A DNA stretch of 64,000 nucleotides from an uncultured Actinomycetota bacterium (GTDB lineage Bacteria > Actinomycetota > Actinomycetes > Propionibacteriales > Nocardioidaceae): NCBI GenBank assembly GCA_963795105.1, contig CAWCGD010000001.1:917097-981096 (forward strand), given 5' to 3'. Below, piece after piece: positions 24,682 to 29,463 of this stretch (within the stretch, counting starts at the first letter, position 1; the number at the start of each line of letters is the position of its first letter). Below the pieces are notes generated by a model. That model did no database searches, was not told where the DNA came from, and worked only from the letters and a program-made list of their open reading frames with translations. The translations under genes and the position numbers were made by a program.

Positions 24682-25500
24682 ATGACTACGGCAGGCGCGG
24701 GCGACACCGCCTTCACCGGCTCCGTTCCCGAGCTGTATGAACGGCTTCTCGTTCCGATGATCTTCGCCGAACCGGCCCGCACACTCGCGACGGCGGTCGG
24801 CGAGGCCAAGCCAACCGACGTCCTCGAGACGGCCGCCGGCACCGGCGCCCTCACCCGCGAGCTCGAGCACGCAGGTGGAATGAACATTGTGGCCACCGAC
24901 CTCAACGCCGCCATGGTGCAGAAGGCCGAAGCGCTTGGGTTCGGCGAGCGCGTGCGCTGGCAGGTCGCAGACGCGCTCGACCTGCCCTTCTCCGATGGTT
25001 CGTTCGACGCCATCGCCTGCCAGTTCGGCGTGATGTTCTTTCCGGACAAGGTGCACGGCTACGCCGAGGCCCGTCGCGTGCTGCGCCCCGGCGGCCTGTT
25101 CGCGTTCAACGTCTGGGATCGGATCGAGACAAGCGTTGTCGCAGAGGTCGTCACCGAAGCCCTGCATGCCGCCGCGCCGGACGGCTCCTTGCAGTTCCTC
25201 CGCCGAACACCTCACGGGCACGGCGACGACACCAGGATTCGGGCAGACCTCGACGCCGCAGGCTTCGATGAGATCCAGATCGAGTATGCCGACGGCACGA
25301 GCCATTGCACGCCTGAGGAGGGTGCACTGGCGTACTGCCAAGGCACGCCTCTACGCGGCGAGATCGAGGCCAATCCGACGATCAGTCTTGACGATGCCAC
25401 GGCCATTGCCACCGCGGCGCTGGAAAGCCGATTCGGAGCCGAGCCGTTCGACGCACCCACACGATGGCTTCAGGTGACCGCACGCCGACCCGGGAGTTGA
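24682..25500 (+). CDS. Class I SAM-dependent methyltransferase (UbiE-like)
   Basis: VLETAAGTG, DALDLPFSDGSFD, RRVLRPGG. Confidence 0.85.
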   Translation: MTTAGAGDTAFTGSVPELYERLLVPMIFAEPARTLATAVGEAKPTDVLETAAGTGALTRELEHAGGMNIVATDLNAAMVQKAEALGFGERVRWQVADALDLPFSDGSFDAIACQFGVMFFPDKVHGYAEARRVLRPGGLFAFNVWDRIETSVVAEVVTEALHAAAPDGSLQFLRRTPHGHGDDTRIRADLDAAGFDEIQIEYADGTSHCTPEEGALAYCQGTPLRGEIEANPTISLDDATAIATAALESRFGAEPFDAPTRWLQVTARRPGS

Positions 25501-25581: not shown

Positions 25582-26103
25582 ATGAGTACACATGGACACG
25601 ATCACGGGAGTACCCAACGCTTGGAGCACCACGGTCACCACCACGGCGCACCGCCGGCCCCGAGCGGCAGCGAACTGACCCGCAACGCCGTCTCGGCGAC
25701 CCTCCACTGCCTGACCGGCTGCGCCATCGGCGAAGTCCTCGGCATCGTCATCGGCACCGCTTTGGGCTGGAGCAACACCGCCACGGTCATCCTCGCGGTC
25801 GTGCTCGCGTTCTTCTTTGGCTACTCCCTGACCATGCGGCCAGTGCTCAGCGCCGGCCTCAGCCTCGGCGAGGCCCTGCGCGTCGCGCTCGCCGCCGACA
25901 CGCTGTCGATCACCGTGATGGAGATCGTCGACAACGCCTTCATCCTGGCCATCCCTGGTGCCATGGACGCCGGCCTGAGCAGCGCACTGTTCTGGTCGAC
26001 ACTGGCAGCTGCGCTGGCCATCGCCTTCATCGTGACTGTGCCCGTCAACCGGTGGCTCATCGCCCGGGGCCAAGGCCACGCGGTCGTCCACCAATTCCAC
26101 TGA
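25582..26103 (+). CDS. DUF4396 family membrane protein with His-rich N-terminus
   Basis: ATLHCLTGCAIGEVLG, ADTLSITVMEIVDN, PVNRWLIARGQGH. Confidence 0.85.
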   Translation: MSTHGHDHGSTQRLEHHGHHHGAPPAPSGSELTRNAVSATLHCLTGCAIGEVLGIVIGTALGWSNTATVILAVVLAFFFGYSLTMRPVLSAGLSLGEALRVALAADTLSITVMEIVDNAFILAIPGAMDAGLSSALFWSTLAAALAIAFIVTVPVNRWLIARGQGHAVVHQFH

Positions 26104-26129
26104 CCCCGAGTACCTTGAGAGTGATACCC

Positions 26130-26681
26130 ATGCGCAAAACCCTCCTCGCCGCTGTCGGCGCCGCCACCCTGCTGCTCGCCACCGCATGCAGCGGCGTCAA
26201 CCCGGACGCGACCGATGCCGGCTCACCGCACAACGAGTCCGACGTCTCGTTTTCCGAAATGATGGTCCCGCACCACCAGCAGGCGGTTGAGATGGCCACG
26301 CTGGCCGAGACGCGCGCGGAAAGCCAAGGGGTCAAGGACCTCGCGACCACCATCAAGGCAGCGCAGGACCCGGAAATCCAAACCATGCAGGGCTGGCTCG
26401 AGTCTTGGAATGAGGACGGGATGTCCCACGAGATGAGCCACGAAGACATGCCCGGCATGGTCGACGACAAGACGATGGGCGACTTGGGCAAGGCAACCGG
26501 AGCCGAGTTCGACCGTCAGTTCTTGACCGCGATGATCGCCCATCACGAGGGAGCTATCGCGATGGCCGAGTCGGAGAAGTCGGACGGCGTCCACAAGGGA
26601 TCGCTGCGCCTCGCGGACGCGATCATCAAGACCCAAAATGCCGAGATCAAGCAGATGCAGAGACTGCTCGCCGGGAGCTGA
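26130..26681 (+). CDS. DUF305 (CopM-like) lipoprotein
   Basis: Lipobox ATAC; duplicated MM.PHHQQAVEMA / MIAHHEGAIAMA Met/His-rich helices. Confidence 0.88.
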   Translation: MRKTLLAAVGAATLLLATACSGVNPDATDAGSPHNESDVSFSEMMVPHHQQAVEMATLAETRAESQGVKDLATTIKAAQDPEIQTMQGWLESWNEDGMSHEMSHEDMPGMVDDKTMGDLGKATGAEFDRQFLTAMIAHHEGAIAMAESEKSDGVHKGSLRLADAIIKTQNAEIKQMQRLLAGS

Positions 26682-26684
26682 CGG

Positions 26685-27092
26685 TTAAGCCGGTGCGATC
26701 TCGGCGATCAGCGCCTCGACCCGCACCCTGATCTCGTCGCGAATCGGCCGGACGGCCTCGATCCCTTGGCCAGCCGGGTCGTCGAGCACCCAGTCCTCGT
26801 AGCGCTTGCCCGGGAAGAACGGGCAGGTGTCGCCACATCCCATGGTGATGACGACGTCAGAGTCCTGAACAGCCTCGGTGGACAGCACCTTCGGCTGGTT
26901 GCCGGCGATGTCGATGCCCTCCTCAGCCATGGCTTCAACCGCTACGGGGTTGACGCCCTCAGCAGGCTCGGAGCCGGCCGACAGCACCGTCACCCGGTCG
27001 CCGGCGAGGTGGTGCAGATACCCAGCGGCCATCTGCGAACGGCCTGCATTGTGGACGCAGACGAACAGGACGGTGGGTCGGTGCTCAGTCAC
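26685..27092 (-). CDS. arsC: Low-molecular-weight PTP-fold arsenate reductase ArsC
   Basis: VLFVCVHNAGRSQMA, TMGCGDTCP, WVLDDPAG; GTG overlaps the arsR stop. Confidence 0.9.
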   Translation of the reverse strand: MTEHRPTVLFVCVHNAGRSQMAAGYLHHLAGDRVTVLSAGSEPAEGVNPVAVEAMAEEGIDIAGNQPKVLSTEAVQDSDVVITMGCGDTCPFFPGKRYEDWVLDDPAGQGIEAVRPIRDEIRVRVEALIAEIAPA

Positions 27093-27460
27093 TGGCCGCC
27101 GCCGATCAGCTCCGCGACATCCGCCAAGGCCTCCGAGCGCACTGTGTAGTAAACCCACGTCGCCCGCTTGCTGCGATCGAGCAGCCCAGCCTCATGGAGC
27201 ACCTTGAGGTGATGGCTGATCGTGGGCTGGGAGAGGTCGAAGGCATCCTGCAACTCACACACGCACGCCTGCTGACCCTCGTGGGCGGCCACCAGTGACA
27301 GCAAGCGCAACCTCACCGGGTCGGCGATCGCCTTGAGCAGCGGCGCAATTCGCTCGGCCTGGTCGGATGTCAGAGGCGAGGACGTGAGTGGTGGGCAGCA
27401 CGCCACCGTTTCGACGGGAGTCAATTCGAGCGGTGCCAACTTCAATGCGGACTTCGGCAT
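27089..27460 (-). CDS. arsR: ArsR/SmtB family repressor
   Basis: N-terminal ACC, KAIADPVRLRLL, ACVCEL, SQPTISHHLKVL; ATG at 27460. Confidence 0.9.
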   Translation of the reverse strand: MPKSALKLAPLELTPVETVACCPPLTSSPLTSDQAERIAPLLKAIADPVRLRLLSLVAAHEGQQACVCELQDAFDLSQPTISHHLKVLHEAGLLDRSKRATWVYYTVRSEALADVAELIGGGQ

Positions 27461-27468
27461 GCATCTAT

Positions 27469-27484
27469 GTTGACACACATCTAT
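27469..27484. promoter_or_regulatory. Putative ArsR box (GTTGA-N6-TCTAT) in the arsR/MFS divergent promoter
   Basis: Imperfect palindrome in the 43-nt gap; similar boxes occur at 28702 and 28739. Confidence 0.6.
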
Positions 27485-27503: not shown

Positions 27504-28706
27504 GTGACCCAGGAACCAGAAGCCGCCGGTACGGCACTGACGACGCCTGAGCGCCGCGGCGTCTTGTGGACGCTGTGCCTGACCGAGATCGTCTCGTGGG
27601 GAGTCCTCTACTACGCATTCGCCGTGCTCGGGCACACGATCGCTGAGGACACCGGCTGGTCGCTGGCCCGCCTGACCGCCCTGTTCTCGGCCGCGTTGAT
27701 CGTTTCCGGCGCGGTCGGTGTCTATGCGGGCCGCATCATCCACCGACACGGCCCACGCTGGGTCATGACGATCGGCTCAGTTCTGGCGGCCGTCGCCTTG
27801 GTCATCATCGCCACCGCGCCAAACCTGCCGACGTTCGCAGCCGGCTGGCTCGTTGCCGGCATCGCGATGGCCGGCGTTCTGTACGCGCCGGCCTTCGCCG
27901 CGATCACCGTGTGGTTCGGGCCGGATCGCGTCCGGGCATTGACCGCCGTCACCCTCGTTGCCGGGTTGGCGTCAACCGTCTTCGCACCGCTGACCGCAGC
28001 GTTGGCGAACGAGCTGTCCTGGCGGAGCACTTACCTTGTGCTCGCCGCGGTCCTCGCCGTCCTGACCATCGCGCCCCACGCGATCTTCCTGCGTCCGGCG
28101 TGGCCGAAACCAAGCGACGAGCCAGCCGCGAAAGGCAGCGACACGGAACGCGCTCATCCACACGGCTTCTGGACCCTGACCATTGCGTACACGGCCATGT
28201 CGATCTGCGCCTACGCGGGGATCATCAATCTGGTGCCCTTGCTCAACGAACGTGGGTACACCGCGACCGAGGCCGCGTGGGCGCTGGGAATCGGCGGCTT
28301 CGGGCAGGTCATCGGACGGCTCGGGTATGCCCGCCTCGCCGCCCGCACCGATCTTGTCCCCCGGACCGTGGCGATCTTCGGAGTCAGTGCGGTCTCCACC
28401 GGCATCCTTGCCGTCGTTCCCGGCCCCTACATCGTGATCGTGGCCGCGTCCCTGATCGCCGGCTACACGCGTGGGCTGGCGACCTTGCTGGGGGCGACTG
28501 CCATCTCGGATCGTTGGGGCATCGACAACTACGCACGGCTCAACGGCATATTCAGTGGCCCGTTGATGGCCGCCGCCGCGATCGCGCCGTTCCTCGGCGC
28601 CGGGCTCGCCCTCCTCCCCGGAGGATTCCCGTTCGCCTTCGGCGTCCTGGCCGCCATCGGTGCACTCGGAACCGTCATTGCAGCGGCCGAACGAACCAAA
28701 CATTGA
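27504..28706 (+). CDS. MFS transporter, ArsK-like
   Basis: About 12 hydrophobic segments; N-terminal LCLTEIVSWGVLYYAF..GWS resembles ArsK-type MFS; divergent from arsR. Confidence 0.7.
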   Translation: MTQEPEAAGTALTTPERRGVLWTLCLTEIVSWGVLYYAFAVLGHTIAEDTGWSLARLTALFSAALIVSGAVGVYAGRIIHRHGPRWVMTIGSVLAAVALVIIATAPNLPTFAAGWLVAGIAMAGVLYAPAFAAITVWFGPDRVRALTAVTLVAGLASTVFAPLTAALANELSWRSTYLVLAAVLAVLTIAPHAIFLRPAWPKPSDEPAAKGSDTERAHPHGFWTLTIAYTAMSICAYAGIINLVPLLNERGYTATEAAWALGIGGFGQVIGRLGYARLAARTDLVPRTVAIFGVSAVSTGILAVVPGPYIVIVAASLIAGYTRGLATLLGATAISDRWGIDNYARLNGIFSGPLMAAAAIAPFLGAGLALLPGGFPFAFGVLAAIGALGTVIAAAERTKH

Positions 28707-28754
28707 TTTCCATCGATATTGTGGCATCCTGACGCTATATAGATGGTTATCGAT
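28702..28754 (+). promoter_or_regulatory. Two putative ArsR boxes (ATTGA-N6-TCGAT at 28702-28717; ATAGA-N6-TCGAT at 28739-28754)
   Basis: AT-rich palindromic pair with the same spacing as the box at 27469, upstream of an RBS and a small ORF. Confidence 0.6.
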
Positions 28755-28774
28755 GCATGGAGGGAGGACCGACC

Positions 28775-28813
28775 ATGGATGACGACGACTGCTGCGAGCC
28801 CGGCTGCTGCTAG
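28775..28813 (+). CDS. Unannotated 12-aa acidic Cys-rich peptide MDDDDCCEPGCC
   Basis: GGAGG at 28763-28767, 7 nt before the ATG; TAG stop overlaps the convergent gene's stop; two CC pairs. Confidence 0.55.
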   Translation: MDDDDCCEPGCC

Positions 28814-29463
28814 CCCGCCGGCTCTTCATCGGACAGGACGGGCTCGGGGAGCGTGCCGGCGTTCCACTCGACGACGCGCCATTGCGGGCCTATCCCTAGG
28901 TCGCGCTCCTCGAGCACCGTCCACGAGCAGTTGCTCAAGCCGCTGAACGCCTCCCAGGTCTCACGCGGTAGCCCGAGAAAGCTGAAGGTCCCCGCACGGG
29001 TGACGCCGCCGTGCGAGACCACGACCAACGTGTCCTCCGGCTCGAGCGTCTCGAGGTGCTCGTGCAGGCCGGAGGTGAACCGCTCCCCCGCTGCCACACT
29101 CGACTCGCTCCCCGGGATCCCGGCCTCGTCACCGGCCAGCCAGCGGGCCATGTGGTCGGGGAACTGCTCCCATGCTTCGGTCAACGTCAGGCCCTCACGC
29201 ACCCCGAAGCTGCGCTCTCTGAACCGGACGTCGGTCTGCACCTGGACGCCGACGAGCCGGCTCAACTCCTCCGCCGTATCCCGCGCACGCGACAAGTCGG
29301 ACGTGACGATGCGGCTCGGCTGCAGGGACGCCAACCGCGCAGCGGCCGCACGCGCCTGCTCGCGTCCGACGTCATCGAGCGGAACGTCAGTCTGGCCCTG
29401 GACGCGCCCGGCGAGGTTCCATTCGGTGCGGCCATGCCGCCAGATGATGACGCGGCGGGTCAT
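28810..29463 (-). CDS. Histidine phosphatase family protein
   Basis: WRHGRTEWN, SDLSRA, RERSFG, VVVSHGG. Confidence 0.9.
   Translation of the reverse strand: MTRRVIIWRHGRTEWNLAGRVQGQTDVPLDDVGREQARAAAARLASLQPSRIVTSDLSRARDTAEELSRLVGVQVQTDVRFRERSFGVREGLTLTEAWEQFPDHMARWLAGDEAGIPGSESSVAAGERFTSGLHEHLETLEPEDTLVVVSHGGVTRAGTFSFLGLPRETWEAFSGLSNCSWTVLEERDLGIGPQWRVVEWNAGTLPEPVLSDEEPAG

Follow-up and report, generated by a model that had tools for sequence, protein, structure and literature searches.

A conserved cysteine-rich micro-ORF behind putative ArsR operators in an actinobacterial arsenic-resistance cassette, and its candidate role in arsenite binding

The window analyzed here is a stretch of 64,000 nucleotides (nt) from an uncultured actinobacterium of the Nocardioidaceae (assembly GCA_963795105.1, contig CAWCGD010000001.1, forward-strand positions 917,097 to 981,096). 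Its arsenic-resistance (ars) cassette contains a 12-residue, cysteine-rich open reading frame (micro-ORF), which a first-pass annotation of the letters alone had described as a hidden peptide gene with its own ribosome-binding site and a stop codon overlapping that of the convergent gene. The sequence at 28759–28813 confirms this description, and the micro-ORF is, as judged from its relatives and its setting, a genuine gene that belongs to the local arsenic-resistance cassette, is conserved and linked to operators, and is absent from annotation. The two elements are:

28775..28813, plus strand: Cys-rich micro-ORF encoding MDDDDCCEPGCC, with a TAG stop (direct sequence reading, orthologues, genome census)
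28759..28767, plus strand: Shine-Dalgarno (SD) sequence GGAGGGAGG, whose distal GGAGG ends 7 nt 5' of the micro-ORF ATG

The codons at 28775–28813 read ATG GAT GAC GAC GAC TGC TGC GAG CCC GGC TGC TGC TAG, giving an acidic peptide with two vicinal Cys pairs in the spacing CC-x3-CC. The stop (TAG, ending at 28813) shares the tetranucleotide CTAG with the stop of the convergent phosphatase gene (CTA, 28810–12), and therefore no plus-strand gene lies 3' of the micro-ORF. In a census of the host genome (2.71 Mb, a soil actinobacterium), which took ATG or GTG ORFs of 6–30 codons with an SD sequence upstream, only 7 of 1,621 such ORFs encoded at least four Cys residues, and the micro-ORF was the sole one with two CC pairs and had the highest Cys density (4/12). 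A 67-residue ORF at 28743–28946 on the plus strand was rejected as the product of this region, since it is devoid of an SD sequence, starts within operator box 2 (see below) and runs antisense to the phosphatase gene.

The peptide is not represented in the family collections. Searches of Pfam and NCBIfam at E-values up to 10 returned nothing for MDDDDCCEPGCC or for three of its relatives, and MDDDDCCEPGCC did not match the model of the bacterial metallothionein family (SmtA/BmtA, Pfam Metallothio_Pro). No match to the micro-ORF was found by blastn in a plasmid collection, and no description of such a micro-ORF gene was found in the full-text literature. The earlier claim that gene callers miss such ORFs holds for the four family members long enough for the lookup (20–26 residues), all of which are absent from 15 billion predicted proteins.

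The genes that surround the micro-ORF are:

27089..27460, minus strand: arsR, 123 residues, with an N-terminal Cys21-Cys22 pair and ACVCEL (Pfam HTH_5)
26685..27092, minus strand: arsC, an LMWP-type arsenate reductase (Pfam LMWPc; NCBIfam arsenate reductase models below cut-off)
27504..28706, plus strand: ArsK-like MFS transporter gene, between arsR and the micro-ORF (Pfam MFS_1)
28810..29463, minus strand: convergent histidine phosphatase (branch 1) gene, the boundary of the cassette and outside the system (Pfam His_Phos_1)

The ArsR protein passes the NCBIfam HTH_metalloreg cut-off, and its best specific model, the Rv2640c family, stays below cut-off. It carries the sequences ..ETVACCPPL.. 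and ..ACVCEL.., in agreement with the N-terminal CC that the first-pass annotation had ascribed to it. The GTG start of arsC overlaps the arsR stop. The best NCBIfam match of the transporter is MFS_ArsK, an arsenite exporter, at 158 bits, below the cut-off of 400.

Three 16-bp palindromes, two in front of the micro-ORF and one between arsR and the transporter gene, mark the promoters of the cassette:

28702..28717, unstranded: putative operator box 1, ATTGATTTCCATCGAT, A-type (matrix score 14–18 bits)
28739..28754, unstranded: putative operator box 2, ATAGATGGTTATCGAT, B-type, reading ATCGATAACCATCTAT on the minus strand (box-B matrix, 28.3 bits)
27469..27484, unstranded: putative operator box A of the divergent arsR/MFS promoter, GTTGACACACATCTAT (box-A matrix, 21.4 bits)
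28725..28730, plus strand: putative −10 hexamer CATCCT, 16 nt after TTGATT (inferred from position only)

Box 1 overlaps the stop codon of the transporter gene and contains the −35-like TTGATT (28703–08), and box A stands 8 nt from the arsR ATG. The pattern RTNGAYNNNNRTCNAT occurs at these three sites and nowhere else in the 64 kb, against 0.71 occurrences expected; it was derived from the same three sites, and an independent matrix test was therefore added. The ArsR protein was searched in 400 genomes of the order, and the divergent promoters of the 29 best orthologues (72–83% identity) were read. A box A (consensus ATTGACAGATGTCGAT, which contains a TTGACA −35) lies 8–26 nt from the arsR start in 27 of the 29 loci, and a box B (consensus ATCGACATCCATCTAT) lies about 20 nt beyond it, followed by a ribosome-binding site and the first gene, in 24. 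Weight matrices built from the sites of these 29 other genomes alone rank the three sites first in the window (21.4, 28.3 and 14–18 bits, against a background of at most 13), and box 2 is the highest-scoring site of the window and of the whole genome. Genome-wide, the three sites are among the four best scores. The fourth, ATCGACAGGCATCAAT (22 bits), lies outside the window at C1:1061387–1061402, where the coding signal is low and no ars gene is recognizable, and is possibly a chance match.

The regulon layout of this ArsR clade, defined as 16-bp boxes of the form [AG]TnGA[CT]-N4-[AG]TCnAT in the order box A, about 20 nt, box B and ribosome-binding site, is reproduced in front of the micro-ORF as box 1, 21 nt, box 2 and ribosome-binding site. 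The same layout precedes the ars operons of the distant long-form loci described below, and locus L010 carries ATTGACTTCCGTCTAT at the position equivalent to box 1. Because the layout recurs in the orthologues and in these distant loci, the boxes are predicted to be the operator motif of this ArsR clade; their binding by ArsR is suggested by position and conservation. The two palindromes that had been likened to the box in the arsR promoter are thus substantiated by matrices that owe nothing to this genome. The candidate −10 hexamer has positional counterparts in the orthologous promoters (CAACCT, CAGTCT and CAAGAT, 17–18 nt after TTGACA).

In three other Aeromicrobium loci (L123, L126 and L127), ArsR homologues of 55–58% identity also keep boxes A and B, which there precede a gene resembling flavin/pyridine-nucleotide oxidoreductases (MQHPDLPVIVIGAGPAGLAAAAQLRS..), possibly arsO-like.

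The slot behind these operators is occupied by arsI/cadI in 22 of the 29 closest orthologue loci, and in four of them by a Cys-rich micro-ORF (at least four Cys) of unrelated sequence:

L043: MCDCGCC, operator-proximal micro-ORF
L046: MDDCCTGTGCC, operator-proximal micro-ORF
L056: MDTCGCGCCGC, operator-proximal micro-ORF
L060: MTDVCCPDCGCC, operator-proximal micro-ORF

Given the background of 7 in 1,621, the binomial chance of 4 in 29 is roughly 1e-5 by our arithmetic. All four are followed by a strong hairpin and then by an unrelated gene, alkB-like or glpD-like. No Cys micro-ORF was seen in 60 further ArsR loci of 55–76% identity.

A separate feature was noted behind arsI/cadI itself. In Nocardioidaceae loci L041, L042, L044, L045 and L048, and also at L049, L055, L057, L065 and L066, a conserved element, ..CTCACACGGCAAACGATTCGCGGGAACACCACCCGTCCCACTAGCGTTG.., lies about 20–70 nt after the arsI/cadI stop; its GGGAAC-N17-CGTT looks like a promoter of the SigH/SigR type (thiol-stress extracytoplasmic function sigma factor) for the next gene.

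Direct relatives of the micro-ORF were found by two routes. A blastn-type search of 40 relatives yielded one further Aeromicrobium genome, G024, in which ATG GAC GAC GAC TGC TGC GAG CCC GGC TGC TGC TAG encodes MDDDCCEPGCC. There the micro-ORF is directly divergent from arsR, behind the perfect palindrome ATATCGAT-ATCC-ATCGATAT; the transporter gene is absent, and the micro-ORF again stands stop-to-stop with the phosphatase gene. MDDDCCEPGCC occurs in five other Aeromicrobium-type sequences (G024/L012, L010, L021, L024 and L037). The six short-form versions differ by synonymous changes (GAT/GAC, GAG/GAA, CCC/CCG), by the choice of stop codon (TAG, TAA or TGA) and by one Asp codon indel, whereas their intergenic flanks diverge and the neighboring proteins are 84–88% identical. 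The micro-ORF stop overlaps that of the convergent gene in the window and in four other Aeromicrobium-type loci. In L024, by contrast, the module of the micro-ORF divergent from arsR-MIP-arsC lies beside a different convergent gene, 2 nt away, and the micro-ORF therefore moves with the ars cassette. Antisense RNA directed against the phosphatase operon was rejected as a general explanation, since the neighbors in L024, L046 and L060 are other genes. A 27-nt match within the C-terminus of an unrelated protein (L003 and L004) was discarded as chance.

The promoter of G024 also bears on the 43-nt arsR/MFS intergenic region of the window, which contains TTGACA (27470–75), a 16-nt spacer, CAAGGA (27492–97), 6 nt and the GTG start at 27504. 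This arrangement corresponds to the TTGACA...CAAGAT of the G024 micro-ORF promoter, and the ArsK-like transporter gene thus looks as if it had been inserted right after the ancestral −10; its mRNA may be leaderless. On the other side of the cassette, the genes beside arsC encode an S-adenosylmethionine (SAM) methyltransferase (24682–25500), a DUF4396 membrane protein (25582–26103) and a DUF305 protein (26052–26681), and may belong to the same metal(loid) island. Past the phosphatase gene lie rsfS, nadD, proA, proB and obg.

The second route consisted of degenerate scans for [DE]CC[DE]PGCC-stop in 185,579 species genomes and in metagenome contigs, which returned 13 loci and 19 contigs, respectively, including three or four that match by chance. 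Neither a start codon nor an SD sequence accompanies the matches in L009/L025 (Nitrospiraceae) and L016 (Fibrobacter), which were set aside on that ground, and L019/L022 (..AVADCCEPGCC), with a weak SD sequence, were left unclassified. In the remaining matches, CCEPGCC-stop terminates 17 different peptides, encoded by 21 distinct nucleotide versions; the sequences come from the two collections and belong without exception to Actinomycetota (Aeromicrobium, Jiangellaceae, Solirubrobacterales and uncultured lineages). An SD sequence of the GGAGGTGA/GGAGG type stands 5–8 nt upstream in nearly all versions and is weaker in L008 and L019/L022. The window micro-ORF has the features that define this family: 11–21 codons, an SD sequence at 5–8 nt, a C-terminal [DE]CC[DE]PGCC-stop and, no more than 1 kb away, an ars gene. 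A profile hidden Markov model of the family, run over 400 genomes of the phylum, has low power, and the window's own match scores 18.9 bits (E = 0.0098).

Alongside the short form, the scans recovered long-form peptides of 16–21 residues, such as MDDCCDETTDCCEPGCC, MSDCCDETTECCEPGCC and MSQETECCTGTECCEPGCC. Although the search pattern does not reach their first CC pair, this pair is kept in 14 of 15 long forms, in a mixture of 19 TGC and 12 TGT codons. In the long-form operons, arsR is divergent from an ORF of 63–90 residues ending in ..CCA, arsI/cadI, the micro-ORF, a GC hairpin, a MIP channel gene and arsC; the glyoxalase-like gene of these operons passes the NCBIfam ArsI_CadI_VOC cut-off. 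Other long forms lie directly 3' of arsR. The first gene of the operons, an unannotated ORF of about 63–90 residues (MLLTTPLAAEQPPRVAELIRAADAARRARAV...SVCCA-stop; L013 6650–7080, L014 3300–3720, L015 3360–3800, L007 1950–2380 and L017 5060–5500), ends in a vicinal Cys pair and had no NCBIfam match. Between the hairpin and the MIP gene, the sequence GCCGTTCACC(G/A)GNCGTTCGCTTGC is conserved in L007, L013, L014, L015, L020, L033 and L029, and may act as a promoter within the operon or as an RNA element. One long form, MYDRCDEMLECCEPGCC, identical in four metagenome contigs (L018, L023, L027 and L030), has lost one Cys of the first pair and adjoins a rearranged or disrupted arsI/cadI; it may be a decaying copy.

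These comparisons bear on the question of whether the micro-ORF is the stump of a deleted gene, as the first-pass annotation had allowed, or more generally a non-functional remnant of an ArsR-controlled promoter-proximal gene or Cys-rich tail that is still kept because the cassette is young. The short form indeed resembles a long form (MDD-CCDETTD-CCEPGCC) minus one unit, as if by deletion between repeated GAC TGC TGC GA. The cassette is patchy, with other Aeromicrobium ArsRs only 50–58% identical, and the long form of L018 has lost a Cys and adjoins a disrupted arsI. However, every relative found has 7–21 codons with Cys at the stop, so that there is no longer homologue of which the micro-ORF could be the 5' end. 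In addition, the SD sequence, ATG, frame and stop are intact in all six short-form versions despite neighbors of 84–88% identity and differing flanks; the ORF persists across two arrangements of the cassette and two different flanking genes; and the four Cys micro-ORFs of unrelated sequence sit in the same slot next to the operators. A remnant is thus very unlikely, and the frame is conserved at every level compared, in the six short-form versions, in the 21 nucleotide versions and, by analogy of position, in the four analogues.

The main rival reading is that the ORF is a Cys-sensing leader (attenuator): low Cys-tRNA or thiols under arsenite would stall the ribosome, the stall would alter the mRNA structure and thereby expression of the downstream gene, and the peptide as such would have no role. 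For short ORFs rich in Cys, attenuation has been proven in M. smegmatis; the mycobacterial polycysteine ORFs have leaderless starts, are found 5' of cysteine-metabolism operons and work by stalling the ribosome, which affects the downstream ribosome-binding site (Canestrari et al.; bioRxiv 10.1101/834739). The long-form loci have a strong GC hairpin 7–15 nt after the micro-ORF stop, followed by co-directional MIP-arsC, and selection keeping the Cys codons would look identical to selection on the peptide. Conversely, the genes that follow are convergent in the window, in four other Aeromicrobium-type loci and in L024, leaving no co-directional target, and in L046 and L060 a perfect 17–19-bp hairpin is followed, about 150 nt away, by an unrelated alkB-like gene. 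The micro-ORFs have strong SD sequences and are not leaderless, and traits other than Cys are kept as well, namely the acidic N-terminus, E-P-G and the CC placed exactly at the C-terminus. No Rfam family matched at the micro-ORF region, and the RNA of the window folds no better than shuffled sequence (z = −0.12). An attenuator is therefore distinctly unlikely. Like the mycobacterial ones, the ORFs described here are Cys-rich, only a few codons long, actinobacterial and missing from annotation, but the window micro-ORF has an SD sequence in place of a leaderless start, and it ends its transcription unit or stands alone, with no downstream gene.

Taken together, the best reading, to which we give somewhat more than even weight, is that the micro-ORF encodes a ribosomally made, ArsR-derepressed As(III) binder resembling metallothioneins or phytochelatins. 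In the absence of arsenite, ArsR would sit on the two 16-bp boxes that flank and overlap the micro-ORF promoter, as well as on the box at its own promoter. Arsenite bound to ArsR would release it, and the micro-ORF would be transcribed from its own promoter and possibly also by polymerases reading through from the ArsK-like transporter gene. With its strong SD sequence, the ORF would then be translated into the 12-residue acidic peptide, whose two vicinal Cys pairs would supply three thiolates to bind As(III), methyl-As(III) or Sb(III). The peptide would thus act as a rapid cytosolic buffer, possibly passing the metalloid to the adjacent efflux or channel protein. The earlier proposal of an ArsR-regulated minimal As(III)-binding peptide is supported as far as sequence reaches, and none of the refuting conditions named with it that sequence comparison could address was found to hold. 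The ORF and its ribosome-binding site stand, as do the operator motif, the conservation and the association with ars genes, while we infer that ArsR binds the boxes, that the peptide is translated and captures As(III), and whether it buffers or chaperones.

The ligand set suits this reading. Vicinal Cys pairs are typical As(III) ligands. The CC-EPG-CC core contains CC-x4-C, the spacing of the ArsD As(III) site. Moreover, nearly all ArsI/CadI-family proteins in the sampled loci (L039–L067 and L006–L017) end in a low-complexity acidic linker followed by CC, CCA or CCGA at the stop, some with a second, internal CC pair, and the micro-peptides therefore look like free-standing versions of the As-binding tails of the neighboring ArsI/CadI. 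In the same operons, the ArsI/CadI and ArsR tails likewise run through an acidic flexible stretch and reach the stop with CC or CCA, whereas here the tail-like stretch forms a separate gene. In S3 As(III) sites of the ArsR types, a vicinal pair is joined by a third Cys, and the N-terminal CC of the local ArsR recalls, and may be equivalent to, Cys15-Cys16 of the type-3 As(III) site of Corynebacterium (PMC11868830).

The peptide may also be real and have another ligand or partner: Cd(II), Cu(I), Hg(II) or Zn(II), or a role in delivering the metalloid to, or removing it from, the CC site of ArsR. CopZ, which acts on CopY with copper, is a model for a peptide acting on a repressor. The ArsI/CadI family includes the Cd-induced CadI, as its NCBIfam name (ArsI_CadI_VOC) conveys, DUF305 and DUF4396 genes lie just upstream, and ArsR/SmtB regulators sense many metals. 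However, all conserved neighbors are arsenic-specific (LMWP ArsC, the MIP channel, the ArsK-like MFS transporter and a CgArsR-like ArsR with an N-terminal CC), vicinal pairs are typical for As(III), and four thiols are few for a Cu or Zn cluster. This alternative is unlikely, although by no means negligible.

Several observations weigh against an arsenite-binding gene product of this kind. The CCEPGCC motif was found in only 11 actinobacterial genomes (13 pattern matches) among the 185,579 species, and Cys micro-ORFs occupy only 4 of 89 ArsR loci; the class is therefore, as far as these loci indicate, an occasional accessory and no core ars function. Any sequence that the search pattern returns must have the conserved amino acids in its last eight codons, so that the synonymous-only result is partly ascertainment; free of this bias are only the G024 copy (found by blastn), the codons not covered by the pattern and the sample drawn through ArsR. 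A scan with the sigma-70 consensus gave no promoter for the micro-ORF. Four Cys would provide one S3 site per peptide, and buffering would then need a high copy number. Finally, Cd or other soft metals would be just as compatible with the ArsI/CadI and ArsR context.

The closest known systems include the cyanobacterial SmtB-SmtA and BxmR-BmtA, in which an ArsR/SmtB repressor gene is divergent from a metallothionein gene. Here too an ArsR/SmtB repressor is paired with a Cys-rich product under its operator, directly divergent in G024 and L024. SmtA, however, has about 56 residues, a Zn4Cys9His2 fold, a Pfam family and zinc as its metal, whereas the family described here has 11–21 residues, only vicinal CC pairs, no family match and an arsenic context. 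Phytochelatins, (gamma-Glu-Cys)n-Gly, are likewise short, acidic, Cys-rich and toxicant-induced, and chelate As(III) and Cd; they are made enzymatically from glutathione, whereas the present peptide would be ribosomal and under transcriptional control. ArsD shares with the peptide its encoding in ars operons and its vicinal pairs, and the peptide resembles a free CC..CC tail; R773 ArsD has its As(III) site at Cys12/13/18 and C-terminal pairs at 112–113 and 119–120 (PMC4562236). In contrast, ArsD, at about 120 residues, is folded and thioredoxin-like and docks on the ArsA ATPase, and the window peptide has 12 residues, no family match, no detectable homology to ArsD and no ArsA beside it.

Overall, we tentatively propose, at somewhat less than even confidence, that ribosomal peptides of 7–21 residues built on vicinal Cys pairs in actinobacterial ars cassettes would be the smallest known metal(loid)-binding gene products and genetically encoded equivalents of phytochelatins, switched on by ArsR and serving as As(III) buffers or in handover to the neighboring channel or efflux protein, and would form a new class of ars gene. 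Likewise possible, though falling just short of probable, is that this class has been missed by every annotation pipeline and has arisen several times, the latter because five unrelated sequences fill the same operator-proximal slot. Genes of 7–21 codons with clear regulatory signals go wholly unrecorded, which constitutes an annotation gap, and the present one offers a test case for small ORFs, with a defined inducer, a defined repressor motif and an easily scored phenotype. The peptides are trivially synthesized and might find use as minimal As(III) tags or as parts of sensors. Should the peptide be made and bind arsenite, one of the most thoroughly studied resistance systems would gain a new component, namely an inducible chaperone or thiol sponge some dozen residues long, and the lower size limit of metal-binding genes would be pushed below the smallest metallothioneins.

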